From NCBI GenBank assembly GCA_036153155.1, contig JAYZMM010000017.1, forward strand, positions 1,292 to 65,291: a stretch of 64,000 nucleotides of DNA. The letters run 5' to 3'. Under the pieces are notes generated by a model that saw only the letters and a list, made by a program, of their open reading frames with translations, was not told the DNA's origin and ran no database searches. Position 1 is the stretch's first letter. Each line of letters begins with the position of its first letter. This document shows positions 9,419 to 29,312 of this stretch, piece by piece. This stretch comes from Planctomycetota bacterium. Its GTDB lineage: Bacteria; Planctomycetota; Planctomycetia; Pirellulales; UBA7805. The translations under genes and the position numbers were made by a program.

Positions 9419-11272
9419 AGTGATCGGAGTGGACTTTGCGTTGCTCCTTAAAATTTGAGACACGATGTTTATCGTCGTATCATTTTTTAAAATTTCAGTA
9501 TGGATCGCATCGACAAAAAAGGTTTGGCCGGAAGGTGGTGTGGTTGCACTCTCAATAGTAATCACTCCATCAGAGGGACCCATCCGTGAATAAAACGATC
9601 CACCGGTCCCCGCTATCGCATAGCTATTCACCCACGGTGCGAGCGGAAGACATTGAATTGCCTGCAGAAGAGGGTTGTCCGGATTCATCAAGTCAATGCT
9701 TGTCGGACTTCTGCGTCGAAGCGTCTTATTAAATGCATCAGGATTTTTCTGAATTAAACTTTTGTGAAATTGTGTTTGTTGAGGAGAGTATTTCACTATT
9801 TTCGATGCAATCTTTCCTGTAGCACGTTTTGCCCACGGAGAACCCTCATTGGGGGTCGCAATAAAAATGGCCGTATGAATGGAGGAGGATGGTGTAAAGA
9901 AAAATTGCTCGGCAAGACGATGACGCTCCTCGGAACTTGCTACAATTTCATTAAACGGTACACGAGCAACACTATTCCATAATGTGTTTCCGCTGCTTGT
10001 AACCTGCATTTTTGCGATAAGGCCACCAAGACTATGTCCGATGATTACCATTTTATCCAGTTTGTTGGTTGGGTGTTGGGCGCGACAATAGGCTTGTAGC
10101 GAAACCAGTTGATTTCGAAGTTGTGCGGCTGACAAAAAGAAATTGCCTCCCGTCGGATAACGATATACCCAAATTTGATAAGCATCATGTAAATCAGATT
10201 GTGCACGAATCTGATTTGCCATCTCCAGATAAGTCTGAGGATCTGAAAACAATCCATGCACGAAAAGAATGGGTATTTTTTCAGGTTGATAAGGTTCCAG
10301 CATTCTCAACCCGGCCAAGCTTGGATCGGTTTCAGGTCGGATATATTCTTTGACTGGATTCCAATTTTTTTCCTGGCCCAAAAATCCCAGAGGGGACGTG
10401 ATATCGGATGCCAGTTGGTAGGTAGCACCTTCATGCCGAACGTGCATTACTTGATGGGGATCGTAAAGCACTAAACCGACCTCACCAATATTATGTGGGT
10501 ATTCGATTCGTAAACGTGCTAACCAAGGTTTCACATTCGGAAATAAAATTGCGGTGGCAGCAAAGGGCGTTTGATTCAAAAAGTAGTTATTCGATTTACT
10601 TTGCTGACAATTATTTTTGCGAAGCGCCACCACAGGGCAACCTAAACCGCATTCGACATACTGATGTCTCAAGTTGGTGTCGTAGTAATATCCAACCGGA
10701 ACAAGCTCGTTGAAACTATCTGAGGGCCAGACAAACTCATTCAATCGTATAGGCAGCCACTCAAGCCCCACCGGAGTTTGTACCAGCAACCCTTTTTGAA
10801 GATCTAGACGACCTGATCTTTGACCATTGACAAGTACCTCGGTAAGACTCGAGTGATAAATATCCCATGCTCTCTCCGTTTTTTTATCGTACTGAGATAA
10901 CTTTCGGTATTGAGAGATGAATATCCAGCTTCTTACTAACGCTGCGTAGTACGCGTCAACAGCCTGTGCTGATGATTTAGTTTTGCGAGCCGATTCATAC
11001 GATTGCTCCATCTCGTCAAGAAGCATGGCAGAGCAATCCGTGGCAGAAAAATTATCTTTTTGCCGAAAACATATTTCCGATACCTTAGCCAATTCGCAAG
11101 AACGGAAGTTTGAATCAGCTGGGATAGGTGAGCTCCAGATGTGTTTCTTTTGACATAGATGGCATCCACTTCCACATAGCACACCGAAGGCGGAGAACAG
11201 GAGGAGGAGACGTCTCCATGGACGGGCACAATCGAATGGTTTTACGGCAGAAATATTCATAAATCCTCCCAA
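9407..11272 (-). CDS. Putative lipoprotein, alpha/beta-hydrolase (lipase/esterase-like) C-terminal domain
   Basis: Signal/lipobox-like N-terminus (LLLLFSAFGVLCGSGC) and nucleophile elbow GHSLGG in VIIGHSLGGLIAKM. The 3' end overlaps the convergent kinase gene by 12 nt. Confidence 0.65.
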   Translation of the reverse strand: MGGFMNISAVKPFDCARPWRRLLLLFSAFGVLCGSGCHLCQKKHIWSSPIPADSNFRSCELAKVSEICFRQKDNFSATDCSAMLLDEMEQSYESARKTKSSAQAVDAYYAALVRSWIFISQYRKLSQYDKKTERAWDIYHSSLTEVLVNGQRSGRLDLQKGLLVQTPVGLEWLPIRLNEFVWPSDSFNELVPVGYYYDTNLRHQYVECGLGCPVVALRKNNCQQSKSNNYFLNQTPFAATAILFPNVKPWLARLRIEYPHNIGEVGLVLYDPHQVMHVRHEGATYQLASDITSPLGFLGQEKNWNPVKEYIRPETDPSLAGLRMLEPYQPEKIPILFVHGLFSDPQTYLEMANQIRAQSDLHDAYQIWVYRYPTGGNFFLSAAQLRNQLVSLQAYCRAQHPTNKLDKMVIIGHSLGGLIAKMQVTSSGNTLWNSVARVPFNEIVASSEERHRLAEQFFFTPSSSIHTAIFIATPNEGSPWAKRATGKIASKIVKYSPQQTQFHKSLIQKNPDAFNKTLRRRSPTSIDLMNPDNPLLQAIQCLPLAPWVNSYAIAGTGGSFYSRMGPSDGVITIESATTPPSGQTFFVDAIHTEILKNDTTINIVSQILRSNAKSTPITSLP

Positions 11273-11777: not shown

Positions 11778-13067
11778 GTGTTGACGATGCTCCAAATATC
11801 CATCTACCGGATACTACTCATTACAGTTGTTCTTGTTGTCTCAGGATGCAACAACGGTGAGGGCGTTTACTCTCCAACCACAAAAAATATTTTGTCGAAA
11901 GCATTTCGTCCGATTGAGATTAAATCGGGTGACTGGCCCTGGTGGCGGGGTCCGACCCACGATGGAATTGCAGAAAACCAGTCGGTGCCGCAACACTGGA
12001 ATGAAGAAAAAAATATTCTTTGGAAAACGGCGGTTCCCGGAAAGGGCCACGCAAGTCCCATTGTTGTTGAGGATCGTATTTTTTTGACAACCGCTAATCA
12101 TGAAACTAATAAGATTTCGCTACTGTGCTATGACCGAAAATCGGGGAGTCTTCTCTGGGAGAAAGAGATTCACCGAGGCCCCTTCATGCATATGCATAAA
12201 AAAAATTCGCAAGCTTCTGCCACGCCTGCATGGGACGGGAAATATGTTTTTGTGGTGTTTATGATCGACGATGGCATTTATGTCACTGCTTTGGATCGAG
12301 ATGGCAATATTGTTTGGCAGACTCGCGCAGGAGACTTCGACTCCAAACACGGATATGGATCCTCGCCGTTTTTGTATAAATCACTGTTGATTGTAAATGG
12401 TGATAATCAGGGAACTGGATTCTTGGCTGCGCTGGATCGAAATACGGGCAAAATCATTTGGCGGATTGATCGTAAAAATAACTCCAGCTTTGCAACACCC
12501 GTAGTAGCAACTATTGATGGTGTCGATCAATTGTTACTAAGTGGCCACAACACCGTGTGTAGTTATAACCCAGAGAGTGGTGCCTTACGTTGGCAGTCAG
12601 AAGGGCCAGCGGCAACAACTGCGAATACGATGCTTTGGTACAAGGGGTTGGTGTTTGCCAGTGGTGGATGGCCTGAACATAATTTGATGGCAGTGCGAGC
12701 TGATGGAAGTGGTAAGATCGCTTGGCAAAAGGGTATCAAATCCTATGTCCCCTCGCCGGTTTTGATCGGAGATCGGCTATTGGTGGTTCAGGACGCAAAC
12801 ATCGTCCGGCTGTTTGATCCAGAATCCGGGAAGGAATTCTGGAAAGAACGGTTAGGGCGTCGCGGATATTCAGCCTCACCAACCGTGGTGGGGAACGTAG
12901 TGTACTTGCCGGATGAGACCGGTGAAGTTCATGTGTTCCGTGCGGGAGATACCTTTGAAAAAATTGCTAGCAACCGCCTTGAAGGCGATGGCATGGCAAG
13001 TCCTGTAATCTGCGGGGGTAAAATATATTTGCGTACTTCCTCGCATCTCTATTGTATCGGTCAGTAA
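11778..13067 (+). CDS. PQQ-like beta-propeller repeat lipoprotein (BamB-like fold)
   Basis: GTG start and lipobox VVSGC. Repeated W-containing blades (LLWEKEI, IVWQTRAG, IIWRIDR, LRWQSEG, IAWQKG, FWKERL) are typical of PQQ-like repeats. Confidence 0.7.
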   Translation: MLTMLQISIYRILLITVVLVVSGCNNGEGVYSPTTKNILSKAFRPIEIKSGDWPWWRGPTHDGIAENQSVPQHWNEEKNILWKTAVPGKGHASPIVVEDRIFLTTANHETNKISLLCYDRKSGSLLWEKEIHRGPFMHMHKKNSQASATPAWDGKYVFVVFMIDDGIYVTALDRDGNIVWQTRAGDFDSKHGYGSSPFLYKSLLIVNGDNQGTGFLAALDRNTGKIIWRIDRKNNSSFATPVVATIDGVDQLLLSGHNTVCSYNPESGALRWQSEGPAATTANTMLWYKGLVFASGGWPEHNLMAVRADGSGKIAWQKGIKSYVPSPVLIGDRLLVVQDANIVRLFDPESGKEFWKERLGRRGYSASPTVVGNVVYLPDETGEVHVFRAGDTFEKIASNRLEGDGMASPVICGGKIYLRTSSHLYCIGQ

Positions 13068-13107
13068 GTTAGTGCGTTAAATCAGGTTTATTGTACGCCA
13101 CCTGAAA

Positions 13108-14568
13108 TCAACGACTCTGTGTCCCACGAAAATGGCGATCGGTAAAATCAAGATATTGCGTCCAGTCGTATAACGTAATGTCGTGTGAACCACTTCGAAG
13201 GTGATAACCCATGGTTCCTTGCACAGGTTGATCGGGGTCCGGCATGCGATCAACCGGCAATCCAGGGGTTCCCAGCATTTTGTAGACTGGGTCGGCATAT
13301 AGCAGGGATAAAAACTCGCCTTTAGGGTCGGCCCACAAATCTTCCGTCGCACTTGCTACGTACACCGGACGAGGTGCAATAAGCGACACCAACATGTGCT
13401 GATCCACTGGAAGTTCATCTTCTCGTTGATTGTATTTTTTAAAGTTTGTACAGAACCAATGTGGAAAATTCATATTGATTGCCTGCACTGTTTCGCCAAA
13501 TTGACGGCGGCTTAGAGCTGCCCCGCCACAGCCAGAATTATTAGAAATAACTACAGCAAAGCGTTTATCTTGTGCCCCAGCCCACAAGGCTGTTTTACCG
13601 AGTCTGGAATGCCCAATGACTGCTGCTCGCGTATGATCGATTTCCGACTCTTGTTCCAGGTAGTCTAAGATTCGGCTGAGACCCCAACTCCATGCCCCGA
13701 TCGTTCCCCACGTTTCTTCCGCTTGTGCGACCGAATGTCCATCGGCAAACAAGGGATGAATACCGTTTTTGTACCCATCATCAAAATCGGGATCTATATC
13801 TCCACAATGTGCGGTCGCGACCGCATATCCTCGCTCAATAATGTGCGCAAGAGGCCAACGTGATTTTTTCTTACCACGTGATGCGACGGTCGCCCGATGA
13901 TCGATCACGCCCTCGTCCTCAGACCCGATGGTCCAGTTTGTATGTAGCCCGATGGCTGGATCCGGGTTGATCGATGCATTGCCGATAAAATTCAATCCGA
14001 CAAATACCGGGGCAGCCTGTTCACAATCCACCGGTCGATAGAGCAGTACATTAATTGTGGCGGTCGATCCGTTTCGTCCCATGGAAATTGCGACTTGTTT
14101 GCGCTCCGCCCTTCCGTCTAATGCCGGTGTCCAATCTTCAGTCACTGTGTATTCGGGTTTCAATGGCTGAGCCGGTTTTTTTCCATATACCTCGCGCTCG
14201 AAAGAGTTCAGAATTTCTTTGCGGCGATGTGTCCACGCATCCGCCGAATCGATTTTTTGCCCGCTTTCCGCGCGTAGTGGATCCGGAAGTTTATAGACTG
14301 GCACTTTCTGCTCATCATAGTTTTGGCCAAACGCTTGGCCTGGAAATGTCATCATGAAAAATACCCACTGATAGATCGTTGCTAGATTTAATATTGCAAG
14401 TAAACGACTCCGGAAATTCTGTTTTTTAAGCCCCTTTTGTTCGCTGCTGCATCCGAGGAGGGTTGACGTTAGCAAATCATTTTTTAGGCTGAATGCCAGA
14501 GATTTCTGGGCAGGTAACATGGTATTTTCCCGGTCCCGGATAAGTTGAAACATCATCCACGTACGCAA
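13108..14568 (-). CDS. Carbohydrate esterase family 15-like (glucuronoyl esterase-like) alpha/beta hydrolase
   Basis: GHSRLGKTALWAGAQD matches the G-x-S-R-x-G-K nucleophile motif of CE15 enzymes. The start is uncertain: ATG at 14520 is more likely, because only 28 bp separate 14568 from the divergent peroxiredoxin gene. Confidence 0.6.
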   Translation of the reverse strand: MRTWMMFQLIRDRENTMLPAQKSLAFSLKNDLLTSTLLGCSSEQKGLKKQNFRSRLLAILNLATIYQWVFFMMTFPGQAFGQNYDEQKVPVYKLPDPLRAESGQKIDSADAWTHRRKEILNSFEREVYGKKPAQPLKPEYTVTEDWTPALDGRAERKQVAISMGRNGSTATINVLLYRPVDCEQAAPVFVGLNFIGNASINPDPAIGLHTNWTIGSEDEGVIDHRATVASRGKKKSRWPLAHIIERGYAVATAHCGDIDPDFDDGYKNGIHPLFADGHSVAQAEETWGTIGAWSWGLSRILDYLEQESEIDHTRAAVIGHSRLGKTALWAGAQDKRFAVVISNNSGCGGAALSRRQFGETVQAINMNFPHWFCTNFKKYNQREDELPVDQHMLVSLIAPRPVYVASATEDLWADPKGEFLSLLYADPVYKMLGTPGLPVDRMPDPDQPVQGTMGYHLRSGSHDITLYDWTQYLDFTDRHFRGTQSR

Positions 14569-14596
14569 AACATAAGTTTTAAAAAGTGAGGAACGA

Positions 14597-15181
14597 ATGT
14601 CGATTATAGGTCAAGCGGCCCCAGATTTTTCAATGGAAGCGGTCGAAAAAGGATCTTTCAAGCAAGTTAGTCTTAAAGATTATGAGGGAAAGTGGCTGAT
14701 TCTTTTTTTCTATCCGCTTGATTTCACTTTTGTTTGCCCGACGGAAATTCTGGCATTTTCAAAAGCAGTCGATCGCTTCAAAAATTTAAACGCCGAATTG
14801 CTGGGCGTAAGCGTGGACAGTAAATTTACTCACTTGGCCTGGACGGAGAAACCGCAGGCAGAGGGTGGAATTGCGGGGCTTGAATATCCACTTGCTTCCG
14901 ATTTAAGCAAACAGGTTGCAACCCGATACAACGTGTTAGCCGCCGGTGGTGTAGCGCTACGCGGATTATTTATCGTTGATCCAAAAGGGATTATTCAACA
15001 TGCAACAGTGAATAATCTTGCAGTTGGGCGGTCTGTGGATGAAACGCTACGAGTACTGCAGGCATTTCAATATGTTGCCGAGCATGGTGAAGTTTGTCCT
15101 GCCGGATGGGAACCAGGAGCCGCAACCATGAAGGCTGATTGGGATGGTTCGAAGGAATACTTCAAATCTGCCAGCGCATAA
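14597..15181 (+). CDS. Typical 2-Cys peroxiredoxin (AhpC/Tsa family)
   Basis: FFYPLDFTFVCPTEI peroxidatic-Cys motif and C-terminal EVCPAGW resolving Cys. Confidence 0.93.
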   Translation: MSIIGQAAPDFSMEAVEKGSFKQVSLKDYEGKWLILFFYPLDFTFVCPTEILAFSKAVDRFKNLNAELLGVSVDSKFTHLAWTEKPQAEGGIAGLEYPLASDLSKQVATRYNVLAAGGVALRGLFIVDPKGIIQHATVNNLAVGRSVDETLRVLQAFQYVAEHGEVCPAGWEPGAATMKADWDGSKEYFKSASA

Positions 15182-15248
15182 GCTAATGAGCTTTTATTAG
15201 AAATTCGCCGAGCAATAACAATCGGTGGATTATTTCTTTGCTTTTATC

Positions 15249-15294
15249 ATCGGCGGTAATTCATACTGATTGTGAATTACCGCCGATATTTTTT
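15249..15294 (+). terminator. Rho-independent terminator downstream of the peroxiredoxin gene
   Basis: Perfect 15-bp stem: ATCGGCGGTAATTCA (15249..15263) and TGAATTACCGCCGAT (15273..15287), with a 9-nt loop. The stem is followed by A and a T6 tract (15289..15294). Confidence 0.8.
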
Positions 15295-15306
15295 GGGGTT
15301 ATACCA

Positions 15307-15855
15307 GTGCGAGCCAAAATCATTCGTTTACTCTTTATTCCTACACTGTTGTGGAATGTGTTTCTTGGCCGACTGCTAAAGGTTCGACACTGGTGGGATG
15401 CACTTACAGAAGAACCTATTCTCCTCGGTGCGCTGCCCTTTTCACGCGATGTGCCTCACTTGCAAGCGGAAGGTGTGACCGGGGTTATTAACATGTGTAT
15501 TGAATATCCTGGGCCAAAAATTGCCTATGAAAAGGCGGGGATTGAGCAACTATGGCTACCCACAGTAGATTTCACACCACCCACCATGAGCGACATTCAG
15601 CACGCAATTAATTTTATTGAGCGTCACGAAAATGGTGGTGGAAAGGTGTATGTCCATTGCAAAGCGGGAAGAGGGCGTAGCGCTACGGTAGCACTTTGTT
15701 GGATCATGTATCGTCGCGGATTTACGCCTGAGGAAGCAGCGGTCTGGTTGGCACGCCAGCGGCCCCACATTAATCGCGATTTAGCAGAGCGGTCTGTCGT
15801 CCAGAGTTTTCACCAAGCCTTATCAGCAGGTGAAAAATTCTCAAGGGATAATTAA
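15307..15855 (+). CDS. PTPMT1-like dual-specificity phosphatase (Cys-X5-Arg P-loop)
   Basis: VHCKAGRGRSAT active-site loop and an N-terminal LLFIPTLLWNVF...ILLGALPF pattern like PTPMT1/PLIP. I moved the start from the TTG at 15238 to the GTG at 15307 because the terminator hairpin lies inside the longer ORF. Confidence 0.75.
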   Translation: MRAKIIRLLFIPTLLWNVFLGRLLKVRHWWDALTEEPILLGALPFSRDVPHLQAEGVTGVINMCIEYPGPKIAYEKAGIEQLWLPTVDFTPPTMSDIQHAINFIERHENGGGKVYVHCKAGRGRSATVALCWIMYRRGFTPEEAAVWLARQRPHINRDLAERSVVQSFHQALSAGEKFSRDN

Positions 15856-22075: not shown

Positions 22076-24622
<2,547 letters not shown>

Positions 24623-24937
24623 TTACGAACCTGGTAATCGCCCCACACGGAATCGGATATCTTTAATTAAATTGCTTTCTGTCTTTTTATTAAATGCTTT
24701 TACAAGTTCTTGCTTACGAAAAACAAGCTCTTGCATTACTGTGGAGTTAGTCACAATCACATTGAGTTGTTGCCGGTTGATTTTCCCACAATGTGTCATC
24801 GGAGAAATAGCGTCACCCACAACCTCTCCCCAAATCGCTTCTAATTCAGTTGTGGCTTGCGGTCTTCCCAACCCTCTTCTTGAAAGCAGGTCAGCAACGA
24901 TATTTCCGATTGGTACTGGTCCTCTTTTTTTCATCAT
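24623..24937 (-). CDS. DUF721 family protein (DciA-like)
   Basis: 104 aa. The pattern IGNIVADLLSRRGL...IWGEVVG...C...L.V.V.NS..MQEL is typical of DUF721. It sits between dnaN and gyrB, as DciA-family genes do in many phyla. Confidence 0.7.
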   Translation of the reverse strand: MMKKRGPVPIGNIVADLLSRRGLGRPQATTELEAIWGEVVGDAISPMTHCGKINRQQLNVIVTNSTVMQELVFRKQELVKAFNKKTESNLIKDIRFRVGRLPGS

Positions 24938-24953
24938 TTATCAAGCGAGTGAT

Positions 24954-26069
24954 TTATCGATCTCGAGCCATTGGCATAATAACGTACCCATAACCATCAT
25001 CCGTTGTGCATACCGCTGCACTTTTTGCATCCTTAATTTCCAGTGAGAAAGTTTTGTCTGCGTCAAGCACCTTAAGAAAATCGCTCATATATTTTGGATC
25101 CAACATAAGGGTAATTGGCTTTCCATTGTATTCGATCGGTAACTCAATCCTGGATTGTCCTGTTTCAGCTGCCTCGCCAGCTAACACTGCGTTCCCTTCC
25201 CCAAAAGTAAAATCGATGCCACGACTCTCTTCACTAGTGACAATTGCTGCCTGACGAACAGCGGAATAAAACAACCCGACAGGCAGTTCAATCTGCATAT
25301 TTTCATCTCGTTTAGGAAACACATCCCTCCATTTAGGAAAACGTCCTTCCACTAAACGAGAATAAATCGTTACATCACCACACTGAATCAGGACATCGTT
25401 AGAGTGGGTTGAAAACTTCACCTGCGATTCTTGATCAGACAACGCACGATCAATAAGTTGAAGCGCGCGACTTGGAATAATAGTGGTTGAATCGCCTGTT
25501 TTATGACCACCTACAGGCTCAGACGGTCCCTGCATTTTTGCGAGTCGACGACCATCTGTTCCAACTGCTATTAAATCTTTATCACCTAATTCAAACAACA
25601 CACCGCTAAGTGCATACCGACTACTTTCATTATCTGTGGCAAAAATAGTCCGATGAATAATCTCTTTTAGGAAAGCTGCAGAAATTTCATGATAAGAATC
25701 ATCACTAAAAGACGCGACAGCTGGAAATTCGTCTGGGTTTGCGGCGGGCAGTAGAAAATTACTCCTCTGGCCATGAACACGTACACCTTGTGATGTAACC
25801 TCAATCTCTAATTTATCATCTGGCGCTTCTCTTAAAATGCTCGAGAATCGACTAACTGGTAGTAACGCGGCACCCGGTGTTTCAACTTCCACGTCCTTCA
25901 CAATAAACCGAATACCTACCTCCATATCAGTGGCTGACAACACTGCCTGATCACTCTCAACTTCCAATTTAACATTCTGCAATATTACTTTAGGGCTTCT
26001 GGATGGAGCAACGGATGCGACCACCTGAAACGCTTCTAAGAACTTTGTTCGATCACAATGGATTTTCAT
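24954..26069 (-). CDS. dnaN: DNA polymerase III beta sliding clamp
   Basis: MKIHCDRTKFLEAFQVVASVAP...ILQNVKL is typical of DnaN. I chose the ATG at 26069 because GGAGGAG lies about 10 nt upstream; the ORF track's GTG at 26099 would include that SD. Confidence 0.95.
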   Translation of the reverse strand: MKIHCDRTKFLEAFQVVASVAPSRSPKVILQNVKLEVESDQAVLSATDMEVGIRFIVKDVEVETPGAALLPVSRFSSILREAPDDKLEIEVTSQGVRVHGQRSNFLLPAANPDEFPAVASFSDDSYHEISAAFLKEIIHRTIFATDNESSRYALSGVLFELGDKDLIAVGTDGRRLAKMQGPSEPVGGHKTGDSTTIIPSRALQLIDRALSDQESQVKFSTHSNDVLIQCGDVTIYSRLVEGRFPKWRDVFPKRDENMQIELPVGLFYSAVRQAAIVTSEESRGIDFTFGEGNAVLAGEAAETGQSRIELPIEYNGKPITLMLDPKYMSDFLKVLDADKTFSLEIKDAKSAAVCTTDDGYGYVIMPMARDR

Positions 26070-26364
26070 AACCCGGACTCCTCCCCCTTCAGACAACACA
26101 CTCGTTTATCTATATCTTTTTTATTTTTAGTTTCAGTAGTTAATCCAACAGAGTAAAAACCACACGCCATTACATAACCCTAATAACTACAACACCATCT
26201 GAAAAAATATATTACTAGTAACCTGTCAGTAATCTGTTTACTGTTAATCTCACAACAAGTTGATTTTGTTGATAGAAACCCAGATTAAAATACGACTGGT
26301 AAATAAAATAAATCAACAAACTACACTCAACAAAAACCAACAAGTTTTACACATACAGGTTTAT
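26070..26364. other. Candidate oriC / replication-control spacer between the dnaA-like gene and dnaN
   Basis: My count over 26101..26360 is 77 G+C in 260 nt (about 30% GC, against about 45-50% in flanking genes), with 25 G and 52 C on the plus strand. Its position between the dnaA-like gene and dnaN is the classical oriC site. I found only degenerate DnaA-box matches, e.g. TTTTACACA at 26345..26353. Confidence 0.45.
26251..26344. repeat. Five copies of a CAACAA-core 9-mer, consensus (A/C)(T/C/A)CAACAA(A/G)
   Basis: The copies are CACAACAAG (26251..26259), ATCAACAAA on the minus strand (26265..26273), ATCAACAAA (26312..26320), CTCAACAAA (26326..26334) and ACCAACAAG (26336..26344). The first two form an inverted pair. 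Confidence 0.5.
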
Positions 26365-27264
26365 TTATTGATGTAGTTTTTCGATCGCATTTTTCAGTAA
26401 TAGGATGTGTTTTTTTATTTCCAAATCTTCAATTGTTTTTTTTTCAATCACTTGGCAGCCATGCGATACAGTCGAGTGGTCGCGATCCAGAAATTTACCA
26501 ATCTTCTGAATACTGTGGCCGTATAATTGGTGGGCCATGTACATCAAGAGTTGCCGGGGAAGAACGATTCCCCGCTGACGACTCCGACCTTTTAAGTCGC
26601 CCATTGAAACCCCAAAATATTTTGAGGTTACTCTGCAGATTTCACTTAATGTGAAATCGGATCCCACCGCCGATTCACTGGTGTTAGATGTTGCGACTTT
26701 GTGTGGTTGGGGGTTTAATTTTAAAACAACCCCCGCATGAAAACGACTCCGCAGTCTTGACGGAAAACTCAACAATGCACTCGGCGGGACACTCATTGTT
26801 AATACAACGCGTTCATTTCCCACTGCACAATGATCTAAAAAATCACACAGACAATTAGCCAAAGAATTATTGGCAGTAAATTGATCAACATTATCGATAA
26901 TCCATAATGTTTCCCGATTAGATTCAAAATATTTATGCTCTAAAGATTGATAATTATTTTTTTGTCCATCGATAAACACAACCGTTTGACCTAACGCACA
27001 ACATCGTCGCTTTAATTCCTTCGTCAATAAAGTCTTTCCAGTACCTCGCCCACCCCAAAACACGGTTGGACTCATCGGATAATTCACCAAAAAAGGATTT
27101 ACCACCTGACCAATAAGCGTCGGCACTAGATGGTTTTCAGGGCCAACAAGGAAACAATCCTGCGTTTTGTCAGTCGGAAACTGATCCCCCGATCCATGTT
27201 CGAATATCGGTGTGCCGCGAAATGAAATACAGCTAACCGGGTCGACGACCATGGTTCCATCCAT
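26365..27264 (-). CDS. Short DnaA-like protein (reduced AAA+ core + DnaA domain IV HTH; lacks domains I-II and the lid)
   Basis: FLVGPEN, Walker A GGRGTGKT, Walker B WIIDNVD and RLRSRF. The C-terminal region LSEICRVTSKYFGVSMGDLKGRSRQRGIVLPRQLLMYMAHQL...DRDHSTVSHG matches the DnaA C-terminal DNA-binding domain. Confidence 0.8.
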   Translation of the reverse strand: MDGTMVVDPVSCISFRGTPIFEHGSGDQFPTDKTQDCFLVGPENHLVPTLIGQVVNPFLVNYPMSPTVFWGGRGTGKTLLTKELKRRCCALGQTVVFIDGQKNNYQSLEHKYFESNRETLWIIDNVDQFTANNSLANCLCDFLDHCAVGNERVVLTMSVPPSALLSFPSRLRSRFHAGVVLKLNPQPHKVATSNTSESAVGSDFTLSEICRVTSKYFGVSMGDLKGRSRQRGIVLPRQLLMYMAHQLYGHSIQKIGKFLDRDHSTVSHGCQVIEKKTIEDLEIKKHILLLKNAIEKLHQ

Positions 27265-27326
27265 TGGGTGAAGAACCCAAATATTAAGACCAGAAAGAAC
27301 ATAAAAGAACGAATTATTTCATGCTT

Positions 27327-28541
27327 CTAATCTACCACTTTAAGCCCCTCTCGACGAGCGGGTGCGGTGGTGGTCGGGGAGGAAATGGTTTTCTGTAAGT
27401 TATTTATACACAATGTGATACGATTAGCCGCCAGTTCCATTTCTTGGTTCGTGTTGAGATAACCAACACTCAGTCGAATTGCCGCATCCAAGAGTGACGT
27501 CTCGCACTTCATCGCCTCTAAAATGGGTGATCTCTGGACCGCTCCACTCTCGCATGCGGCTCCTGTGGAACATGCGATTCCTGACTGGTCGAGCGCCATC
27601 AACAAAGCCTGTCTATCCACACCCGCTACGGAAAAACAACTTGTTTGCGGTGCCCTTTCTGTCTGGTCTCCATGAAATACGACATTTGGAAACGCCAAAG
27701 CAATTTGGTGCTCAAGGAAATCCCGCATCTTTCGCAGTGCCTGCCCATTATCACTCATTTGTGAATGAGACCATTTCCATGCAGTCCAGAGTCCCTCCGC
27801 TAAAACTGGGCTTTCTGTTCCGGGACGTACTCCAGATTGTTGGAATCCGCCAAGCAATAGAGGCTTCATTTGAGTGTTTCCTCGAACGAATAAGCCCCCA
27901 ATTCCTTTCGGGCCGTGAAATTTATGGCCGGAAAAAGTAAGTGCCGAGATAGGAATTTTTCGAAGATCGATGGGTATCTTGTTGATAATTTGTGTTGCAT
28001 CGGTGTGTAGCGGAACACCATACTTCTGACACAATTCCGCAATCCTCTGTATCGGTTGTAATACTCCTGTTTCATGTTGGGCCCAGATCACACTAACCAA
28101 ACTGGCACCTTGTTGAAGAAGATTTTCAAGTTGTTGGATTGAAATGATCCCCTGACGATCCACCTCCAGCCAATGAACAACAATTCCGTTTTGTGCCATA
28201 GACTGGGCAACACGTTCAACACTTGGATGCTCTCCGGGTGAAAGAATAATTGGACCCGCCTCGCCCAAACCGTGAAGAGCCAAATTATTAGCCTCTGTCG
28301 CCCCGCTGGTGAAAATAATTCGATCCGGGTTTATGCCTGTGGTTTGTCCCCCCAGGTCAACTAAAATCCCCTCCCGGGCCCGTTCGACCACTTGGCGGGC
28401 TTTACGCCCAAAGCGATGAGGACTTGCAGGATTGGCGTGCTGGCAACGCGCGCACTCAAGCATTGCCTCCAGCACAGGTGTTGCCAAAGGCGTTGAAGCG
28501 TTGTTATCGAGATAAAGAATCGTTGGCTGGGACATCGCCAC
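27327..28541 (-). CDS. Cysteine desulfurase (class V aminotransferase, NifS/IscS-like)
   Basis: YLDNNASTPL, FTSGATEANN, SGHKFHGPKGIGGLFVR (the PLP lysine) and the active-site loop CSTGAACES. Confidence 0.9.
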   Translation of the reverse strand: MAMSQPTILYLDNNASTPLATPVLEAMLECARCQHANPASPHRFGRKARQVVERAREGILVDLGGQTTGINPDRIIFTSGATEANNLALHGLGEAGPIILSPGEHPSVERVAQSMAQNGIVVHWLEVDRQGIISIQQLENLLQQGASLVSVIWAQHETGVLQPIQRIAELCQKYGVPLHTDATQIINKIPIDLRKIPISALTFSGHKFHGPKGIGGLFVRGNTQMKPLLLGGFQQSGVRPGTESPVLAEGLWTAWKWSHSQMSDNGQALRKMRDFLEHQIALAFPNVVFHGDQTERAPQTSCFSVAGVDRQALLMALDQSGIACSTGAACESGAVQRSPILEAMKCETSLLDAAIRLSVGYLNTNQEMELAANRITLCINNLQKTISSPTTTAPARREGLKVVD

Positions 28542-28664: not shown

Positions 28665-29312
28665 ATGATCCCCGCCATGAAAACTTCCGCGTTTGATACA
28701 TTTTGTCGTGCTCTCGTTTTTGGTGCCGTTTTGGGTGCGATCGGTTGGGGTGCTGTACGGTACACCAATCTTCCTCAAATGGCTCTGGCAAAAATTGTCA
28801 CTCTTAGTCGAGAAGTTCAGGGTCAGGCGGGTGATCCGAATTACCTTCACGATGCATCGGTGACATTAACCACCCCTGCCCCATTATCCTCTATAAATTC
28901 TAATTCAGTCTCTGCATCGCCAATTACGCAAACACCGCCTCAAAACATCCCTGCGGTGAATTTGGGTGTTTTGCAACAAGAAGCACAACATCCGGCACAA
29001 CAGGCAGCCTACTTGGAGCCGACGCCCCCGAGCACCAACAATGCGGCAACAATTAATCAAACTTCCTGCAGTCGAAGAACTATGGAACAACGGCTAGCTG
29101 AACTTGGAGCCGTCTACAGCTTACTTGAGATGTGGGGCCATGAAAACGTGCAATACCGTTTCCATTGTCGGGTATCAATCGCAAATAATCGACAAGTCAC
29201 ACGAAGTTTTGAAGCGAACGGTGCAAGCCCTGAAGAGGCGATGCGGCAAGTACTCACCGAAGTCGAGGGGTTTCAGTCCACAAGTAGTCTGCAGGGACCA
29301 GAGGTACGCTGA
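28665..29312 (+). CDS. Hypothetical membrane-anchored protein
   Basis: N-terminal TM helix (ALVFGAVLGAIGWGAV), a low-complexity P/S/Q/N linker and a small C-terminal globular region. I recognise no family. Confidence 0.5.
   Translation: MIPAMKTSAFDTFCRALVFGAVLGAIGWGAVRYTNLPQMALAKIVTLSREVQGQAGDPNYLHDASVTLTTPAPLSSINSNSVSASPITQTPPQNIPAVNLGVLQQEAQHPAQQAAYLEPTPPSTNNAATINQTSCSRRTMEQRLAELGAVYSLLEMWGHENVQYRFHCRVSIANNRQVTRSFEANGASPEEAMRQVLTEVEGFQSTSSLQGPEVR

Follow-up and report, generated by a model that had tools for sequence, protein, structure and literature searches.

A DnaA orthologue without the AAA+ lid at the dnaA locus of a marine planctomycete lineage

Background

DnaA has been described as a strictly conserved protein of four domains (PMC3401641), and a 2017 review on its N-terminal domains takes domain I as general. 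The canonical proteins, such as those of Escherichia coli, Bacillus subtilis and Aquifex aeolicus, combine the Pfam families DnaA_N (PF11638), Bac_DnaA (PF00308) and Bac_DnaA_C (PF08299). In these proteins the sensor II arginine of the lid contacts the gamma-phosphate and keeps the site open, and in the ADP-bound or empty state the lid closes, blocks the box VII arginine of the neighbouring subunit and prevents filament formation (PMC3401641). On their own, domains III-IV of E. coli DnaA are able to open oriC in vitro, yet they fail to sustain replication (PMC5448010), because domain I is required for helicase loading. The related proteins Hda (E. coli) and HdaA (Caulobacter) are small DnaA-type AAA+ proteins without domains I-II, whose N-terminal hexapeptides (QLSLPL and QFKLPL, respectively) have been shown to bind the clamp (PMC3836487). 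Here we describe a dnaA-like gene on the minus strand of a 64,000-nucleotide stretch of planctomycete DNA (contig JAYZMM010000017.1 of assembly GCA_036153155.1, positions 1,292 to 65,291; referred to as the window, to which all coordinates below apply unless another locus is named). The gene (26365..27252) is part of a gene order, all on the minus strand, that consists of a cysteine desulfurase-like gene, the dnaA-like gene, dnaN, dciA and gyrB (CysDes-dnaA-dnaN-dciA-gyrB in the following). A reading made from the letters of this DNA alone (the sequence-only reading) had pointed it out as a miniaturised DnaA homologue, either a stripped-down initiator or an Hda/DnaA hybrid.

Results

Domain content of the window protein

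The window protein consists of a DnaA-type AAA+ core and a complete domain IV, and it lacks domains I-II as well as the lid. Pfam Bac_DnaA matches residues 34-181 (E 7.5e-10, 39.7 bits against a cut-off of 23) and Bac_DnaA_C matches residues 208-272 (E 4e-22, 78.4 bits), there is no Pfam match to DnaA_N, and only some 32 residues lie ahead of the domain III segment 'CFLVGPEN'. A comparison profile built from 60 full-length DnaA sequences aligns to the protein at profile positions 119-277 and 354-449 only: positions 1-118, which represent domains I-II, have no counterpart, and neither have positions 278-353, which represent the lid and in whose place 17 residues are found. The AlphaFold2 model (13-sequence alignment, mean predicted local distance difference test score (pLDDT) of 70) contains an alpha/beta core (44-182), a disordered segment (186-201), domain IV (206-296) and not a single lid helix. 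Its best PDB matches according to Foldseek are DnaA structures (8btg, 3r8f, 1l8q and 2hcb), and its domain IV, which was aligned with the E. coli DnaA structure 1j1v, superposes at 1.2-1.4 Å on the DNA-binding domains of E. coli and Mycobacterium tuberculosis DnaA. The profile searches and the structure prediction that the sequence-only reading had proposed both uphold its claim that domains I-II and the AAA+ lid with sensor II are missing. At the level of whole-protein models the sequence falls below the line: the NCBIfam DnaA equivalog TIGR00362 scores it at 126.5 bits, the cut-off being 343.9.

The open reading frame (ORF) of 299 codons at 26365..27264 (minus strand) is real and belongs to a conserved gene, and the motifs that had been listed for it are all present at the residues given (299-residue numbering): FLVGPEN, GGRGTGKT (71-78), WIIDNVD (121-127), RLRSRF (170-175) and RDHSTVSHG. 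The proposed start at ATG 27264 is the part that needs revision. The ATG at 27252 (MVVDP...) is the start chosen by the gene callers on three independent assemblies, and it agrees with the start of all homologues, so that translation probably begins there and the product most likely has 295 residues; the ATG at 27264 would add four codons. A longer N-terminus had rightly been excluded, since an in-frame TGA (27321..27319) lies 54 nt ahead of ATG 27264 and the cysteine desulfurase gene upstream extends to 27327.

Along the 295-residue product (all features on the minus strand) the Walker A motif GGRGTGKT takes up residues 67-74 (27031..27054), the glycines at its first, fourth and sixth positions and its lysine being invariant in the 13 aligned sequences. 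Compared with canonical DnaA, the beta2-beta3 region with the initiator-specific motif (26905..26979) lacks 8-12 residues, and a single helix is predicted for it. It is followed by Walker B (WIIDNVD, residues 117-123; 26884..26904), in which the second acidic residue is an asparagine; this position alternates between DD and DN among the close relatives. The basic B-motif residues that come after Walker B and serve in single-strand binding are absent from the window clade. Box VII with the arginine finger (RLRSRF, residues 166-171; 26740..26757), of which R-L-R-S-R is invariant, precedes the deletion junction (residues 178-201; 26650..26721), where a linker of about 16-24 residues, predicted to be disordered, stands in the place of the four-helix lid. 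Domain IV (residues 202-291; 26380..26649) keeps the counterparts of E. coli R399, P406, R407, Q408, D433, H434, T436 and H439; T435 is replaced by Ser and P423 by Gln. The latter replacement is found across Planctomycetota, and the box recognised in this phylum may therefore differ from the E. coli consensus. In summary, the protein resembles canonical DnaA in its AAA+ core, Walker A, Walker B aspartate, arginine finger, domain IV fold, most DNA contacts, best PDB sequence and fold matches and the position of its gene directly upstream of dnaN, whereas it differs in the lack of domains I-II, of the lid (subdomain IIIB) and of sensor II, in the short initiator-specific motif, in the lack of a basic B motif and in its Walker B DN.

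The lid was removed by a single and very rare deletion

The missing lid had been named in the sequence-only reading but not singled out, and it is the actual rarity of this protein. We gauged the presence of a lid by the number of residues between the box VII arginine motif and the RDHSTV motif of domain IV. This distance is 91 in the window protein, against about 150 usually, and 89-93 in 16 sequences of the window clade; it is 102 in the protein P0132, 128 in P0197 and 135-185 (mostly 148-152) in the remaining 433 DnaA sampled, whether full-length or short. Alignment with the sister clade displays one clean gap of about 55-60 residues at the lid, and the AlphaFold2 model of the sister protein P0011 (pLDDT 83) has its four lid helices at 183-249, exactly at the gap. 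A profile search over 1.84 billion representatives recovered the lidless form in one 50%-identity cluster only (P0003). In a neighbour-joining tree, for which the lid columns were removed, the lidless sequences group together as one clade (bootstrap 100%) and have a lid-bearing group of 350 residues as their sister, also at 100%. The monophyly of the lidless clade implies a single deletion event, and the deletion is in frame and has identical boundaries throughout the clade. The four-helix lid was thus removed by one clean deletion, an event that is very rare among DnaA.

A second, independent lid deletion was found in P0132 (309 residues), which shows one 50-residue gap with respect to the lid-bearing protein P0167. 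Like the window gene, the P0132 gene resides at the CysDes-dnaA-dnaN-dciA-gyrB locus, as seen in two assemblies (the metagenome-assembled genome (MAG) GCA_975970265.1, locus L093, 5896-6825; and SRR33785045, locus L094, 1463-2392). It belongs to another Planctomycetia lineage, however, is 29% identical to the window protein (54% to P0167), and its deletion has different boundaries, the start of the first lid helix having been kept. The occurrence of an independent deletion at the same locus suggests that the lid can be dispensed with in the subfamily of short DnaA proteins described below.

DnaA of class Planctomycetia as a rule lacks domains I-II

The absence of domains I-II, which had been noted for the window gene, turned out to be the general condition of the DnaA encoded next to dnaN in class Planctomycetia. 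In eight Planctomycetia loci the genes adjacent to dnaN encode proteins of 321-358 residues that start at or just before the domain III segment 'F..G.EN', and all nine short DnaA for which neighbours were examined (9/9) are encoded in the CysDes-dnaA-dnaN-dciA-gyrB locus or part of it. The best 150 matches of the exhaustive profile search (1.84 billion representatives) are mostly 330-400 residues long; a search of a 5.8-billion-cluster set yielded more than 1000 matches, of which the top 120 have 314-444 residues and no DnaA_N. The Phycisphaerae, in contrast to this class, retain a DnaA of about 440 residues. That short length might simply be the norm among relatives had been raised in the sequence-only reading together with a demonstrated canonical function: the length is indeed the norm, but our literature search found no demonstration of such a function. 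The literature search likewise returned no description of a DnaA without domain I or without lid in Planctomycetes. The NCBI annotation pipeline does not call the short Planctomycetia proteins DnaA, but names them 'DnaA/Hda family protein', 'helix-turn-helix domain-containing protein' or 'ATP-binding protein', and JGI uses 'chromosomal replication initiator protein'. The conclusion that we are dealing with a DnaA minus its lid, set within a little-noticed and class-wide family of DnaA minus domains I-II, is well supported.

Order of the losses and the N-terminal motif

The short DnaA proteins fall into two types (the sensor II column was read with a window of ±1 residue across the short DnaA, and from MAFFT alignments for the window clade). 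Those without an N-terminal extension (Gemmataceae type, starting with MQTFxxWIxLxEN) have kept the sensor II arginine in 100 of 117 cases, whereas those with an extension of about 30 residues lack it in 101 of 134 cases, a proline being the usual replacement; the gain of the tail accompanies the loss of the arginine. The extension has the consensus M-V-x-G-V-F-[ST]-I-P-L-[PS]-G at residues 1-12 (N-termini of P0121-P0269 and P0300-P0417), with the hexapeptide VF[ST]IPL at residues 5-10. A profile of this extension gave matches that were dominated by canonical DnaA and added few new members, and the short Planctomycetia DnaA with N-terminal tail are a group defined in this analysis, not a curated family. 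The window clade belongs to the extension-bearing class. It shares with the short Planctomycetia DnaA (320-380 residues) the locus, the lack of domains I-II, the tail and motif of the subfamily, the grouping in the tree and, with most tailed members, the lack of the sensor II arginine. It differs from them in that they keep the four-helix lid (distance between box VII and RDHSTV about 145-157, P0132 apart, against 89-93) and in its degenerate N-terminal motif, which reads VSCISF in the window protein (residues 6-11; 27220..27237, minus strand). The sensor II arginine was lost before the lid deletion: at the position that is occupied by arginine in the canonical NIRELEGAL, the lid-bearing sister and outgroup proteins P0008, P0011, P0122 and P0124 have E, P or G.

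The hexapeptide bears on the suggestion that the protein is an Hda/DnaA hybrid, for which it provides a lead and little beyond that. The protein could combine a DNA-binding domain with an Hda-like regulator that is coupled to the clamp: the hexapeptide would bind the beta clamp, and once initiation has taken place loaded clamps would tether or inactivate the protein and thereby replace ATP hydrolysis. The pattern [ILV][PS][LFI] occurs within the first 22 residues, near residue 8, in 91 of 130 extension-bearing proteins, against 8.4% of control windows; the motif resembles those of E. coli Hda and Caulobacter HdaA (in the latter 4-QFKLPL-9), which are likewise found at the extreme N-terminus, as a hydrophobic hexapeptide ahead of an 'F..F..G..N' segment; the gain of the tail is coupled to the loss of the sensor II arginine; and the AAA+ core, with its conserved box VII arginine, gives a weak match to the Hda model. 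That match amounts to 44.3 bits for TIGR03420, however, well below the cut-off of 194.8, and in the window protein Ser has replaced the second residue of the motif, Phe, as well as its fifth, Pro. The glutamine that opens the Hda motif (QL[SP]LPL), for which clamp binding was demonstrated by experiment, is found nowhere in the subfamily. Moreover, the AlphaFold2 model of the sister protein packs the motif as a beta-strand against strand 32-35 of the same chain, which suggests a structural role within that chain. Finally, a lid is present and domain IV missing in Hda, whereas the window protein has a full domain IV and no lid. We therefore consider an Hda-like regulator very unlikely.

Genomic context and orthology

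All genes of the locus are on the minus strand. Upstream of dnaA, the class-V aminotransferase or cysteine desulfurase-like gene (27327..28541) is a neighbour that is conserved across Planctomycetia. Downstream of the dnaA-like gene are dnaN, encoding the beta clamp (24954..26069, 371 residues as called on other assemblies), dciA (24623..24937, PF05258, 104 residues) and gyrB (22076..24568, 830 residues). The CysDes-dnaA-dnaN-dciA-gyrB order was recovered, in whole or in part, in identical contigs from other samples, in lidless relatives of 58-85% identity (both lidless sublineages), in the lid-bearing 350-residue sister group, in MAGs of Gemmataceae and other Planctomycetia, and on a Pirellulales-type contig of 1.18 Mb. 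Two full-length DnaA (439-443 residues, domain I present), of a Phycisphaerae MAG and an unclassified Planctomycetota MAG, adjoin dnaN and gyrB as well. The synteny that is shared with the relatives and with full-length dnaA identifies the window gene as the positional orthologue of dnaA in an uncultured marine Planctomycetaceae lineage, and the earlier description as a reduced DnaA homologue at the place of dnaA is supported. The proximity of a DciA gene, on the other hand, had been taken as a possible mark of a non-canonical initiation module. In 15 of the 23 phyla with DciA the gene is commonly placed beside dnaN/gyrB (PMC5109545), and this placement is on its own no sign of such a module.

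An identical protein is encoded on three independent assemblies, and lidless relatives at 54-98% identity were found in other marine metagenomes; the samples are marine (TARA and others). The genomes of the clade that carry names are the Planctomycetaceae MAGs UBA7805 and GCA_002306615.1. A scan of a genome collection gave one close relative (UBA7805) and unrelated DnaA among the matches listed. The UBA7805 copy (L001, about 10712-11106) contains a masked run of N within its coding sequence, and its apparent match length of 1208 nt is inflated because of that run. Within the 64-kb window there is no second DnaA-like ORF.

Some further observations concern the surroundings and the compared genomes. 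Divergent from the cysteine desulfurase gene lies a plus-strand gene (28665-29312) for a protein of 215 residues that has no Pfam match and occupies the same place in all relatives; it is followed by genes for a penicillin amidase and an M50 peptidase. On the 1.18-Mb contig (L091), which encodes P0408, gyrB (12927-15537) was called as three genes, a split that is probably due to frameshift errors of the long-read assembly. A full-length DnaA of 436 residues labelled 'uncultured Pirellulales' (L036), which has no dnaN neighbour, is nearly identical to the DnaA of an Anaerohalosphaeraceae (Phycisphaerae) genome (L025), and the taxonomic label or the binning of the former looks doubtful.

Selection on the gene and its neighbours

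More than 70 columns are invariant in the alignment of 13 sequences (46-98% identical). They include G71, G74, G76, K77, D124, D127, T156 and the R-L-R-S-R of box VII (299-residue numbering), as well as the equivalents of E. coli R399, R407, D433, H434 and H439 in domain IV. We compared the rates of evolution over window positions 22076-27252 with the corresponding loci of two relatives (L084 and L086), using the ratio of non-synonymous to synonymous substitution rates (dN/dS). The values against close relatives are 0.22-0.30 for the dnaA-like gene, 0.08-0.09 for dciA, 0.03-0.04 for dnaN and 0.01-0.02 for gyrB, and the respective protein identities to the sister clade are 48-49%, 64-73%, 90-91% and 91-94%. 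There is, in other words, a strong contrast in rate inside one operon-like cluster, with slow dnaN and gyrB and a fast dnaA-like gene. The dnaA-like gene is functional and under purifying selection, with a constraint that is unusually weak for an initiator.

The same data bear on the question whether we are looking at a pseudogene, or at a normal dnaA distorted by errors of assembly or gene calling, as the shortness of the protein and its low score against the NCBIfam DnaA model might suggest. This explanation was rejected as extremely improbable: the intact ORF was recovered from eight or more independent assemblies, which stem from different samples, dN/dS is well under 1, the invariant columns persist over the whole range of identities, and an in-frame deletion with the same boundaries is shared by an entire monophyletic clade.

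The dnaA-dnaN spacer

The spacer between the dnaA-like gene and dnaN (26070..26364, minus strand) is AT-rich (32% G+C) and contains conserved blocks. It measures about 290-310 nt in all relatives, at 29-38% G+C (window, L084-L087 and L089), and the blocks comprise GGAAAACyTGTTG just after the dnaA stop, ATCAACA, ACAGGTTAT, and TAAAAATAA..AAAGATATAGATAA before dnaN; there is thus one DnaA-box-like element directly after the dnaA stop and an A/T block ahead of dnaN. The canonical DnaA box, TTATCCACA, has 24 matches in the window when one mismatch at most is allowed, against 15 expected, and none of these is in the spacer. Allowing up to two mismatches, the six spacers contain 0-3 sites each, which is near chance, and de novo counting of 8-mers brought up A/T runs only. 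The sole perfect box near the locus is found at 24378-24386 inside gyrB. It was rejected as an origin element: it is the reverse complement of the V-D-N codons in the conserved GyrB segment EVVDNSIDE and thus a coding coincidence. Scans of the locus for promoters, terminators and Rfam families gave nothing above background.

Discussion

Stepwise reduction and proposed mechanism

The findings show a reduction in three steps. Domains I-II were lost in an ancestor of class Planctomycetia. One large subfamily acquired the tail of about 30 residues with its conserved hexapeptide, and the sensor II arginine disappeared from most of its members. In the immediate ancestor of the window clade the entire four-helix AAA+ lid, some 60 residues, was then removed by one deletion. 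Purifying selection acts on the remainder, in which a short disordered linker connects a canonical, DnaA-box-binding domain IV to a P-loop core that has kept Walker A, the first Asp of Walker B and the box VII arginine finger.

Such a protein would still bind DnaA-box-like DNA through domain IV, and head-to-tail stacking would persist by way of the bound nucleotide and the arginine finger. Given an intact P-loop and arginine finger and no lid, the protein is expected to be permanently open, its oligomerisation not being gated by ATP or ADP. Sensor II-assisted hydrolysis would be impossible without a lid, and since Walker B alternates between DD and DN, ATP hydrolysis is probably not an activity under selection. 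Substitutions of the sensor II residue R334 in E. coli DnaA preserve ATP binding and initiation, with loss of hydrolysis and of sensitivity to DnaA's regulatory inactivation (RIDA), which is the behaviour that is predicted for a protein without sensor II. These mutants and the E. coli construct of domains III-IV, which in vitro opens the origin (PMC5448010), are nevertheless engineered variants: E. coli is not viable with the N-terminally truncated protein, and a complete loss of the lid occurs in none of these variants. DnaC/IstB, considered as a lidless precedent, was set aside, as DnaC has a sensor II arginine. Helicase recruitment, which is normally carried out by domain I, would pass to DciA as the obvious candidate; the fold of DciA resembles DnaA domain I (bioRxiv 10.1101/2022.01.24.477630). 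The result would be a switchless, origin-binding initiator that is controlled through the amount of protein or through factors that interact with the N-terminal motif.

Weighing the role of the protein

On balance, and with modest confidence, we favour the view that the window protein is an origin-binding DnaA orthologue without a switch, in which DNA binding and oligomerisation are both preserved. Several observations weigh against this view. The basic B-motif residues are absent and the initiator-specific motif is shortened, which makes origin melting doubtful. The dnaA-like gene has a dN/dS about ten times that of dnaN and gyrB and an identity of 48-49% where DnaN and GyrB reach 90-94%, and such fast evolution fits a relaxation of constraint after the loss of the role as central initiator. 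A DnaA-box cluster is absent from the dnaA-dnaN spacer and from the vicinity of the locus, and the GC skew over the 64 kb tracks the strand of the genes with no origin-like turn, so that there is no sequence signal for an origin here. Furthermore, paralogous dnaA copies occur in the phylum (Candidatus Kuenenia has three), and our literature search found no experiment on any Planctomycetia DnaA.

Much of this would also be expected if the protein were a relic or a repurposed DNA-binding regulator, for instance a domain IV-dependent transcription or chromosome-organising factor that autoregulates the dnaA-dnaN operon, with initiation being carried out by another DnaA paralogue or by a DnaA-independent route. 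Besides the rate contrast, the missing box cluster and skew turn and the multiple copies in Ca. Kuenenia, the successive loss of ATP-switch and single-strand-binding elements is in line with this explanation, and so is a cyanobacterial study that deals with altered DnaA-dependent replication and with free-living bacteria without dnaA in their genomes (PMC7198777). Yet a plain transcription factor would have no need of Walker A and the arginine finger, which are invariant here. The ancestral dnaA position is moreover held in every relative examined, the window offers no second DnaA-like ORF to take over, and in Ca. Kuenenia it is the dnaN/gyrB-adjacent copy that sits at the skew-defined origin. 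A relic or regulator hence seems to us possible, though rather unlikely.

A bolder extension of the favoured view, that of a switchless DnaA orthologue, combines several of the elements above: in Planctomycetia the N-terminal peptide would take the place of domains I-II and dock on the beta clamp in the manner of the Hda motif, the initiator being restrained by the clamp instead of by ATP hydrolysis, the domain-I-like DciA would recruit the helicase, and in the window clade the ATP switch, having become redundant, would have been deleted together with the lid, leaving a sole and always-open initiator. We regard this complete scenario as quite unlikely.

Conclusions

The ATP/ADP switch that operates through the lid and sensor II is at the core of current models of once-per-cycle initiation. 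At the locus described here the hardware of this switch has been removed while selection has continued to act on P-loop, arginine finger and DNA-binding domain, and the lidless clade is nested in a class that lacks the helicase-recruiting domain I. These proteins offer test cases for a minimal initiator, for DnaA oligomerisation and DNA opening without nucleotide gating, and for initiation control without Hda, with the N-terminal motif or DciA as a possible substitute. If the bolder scenario were true, a free-living bacterium would have a lidless, always-open AAA+ protein as its only initiator.

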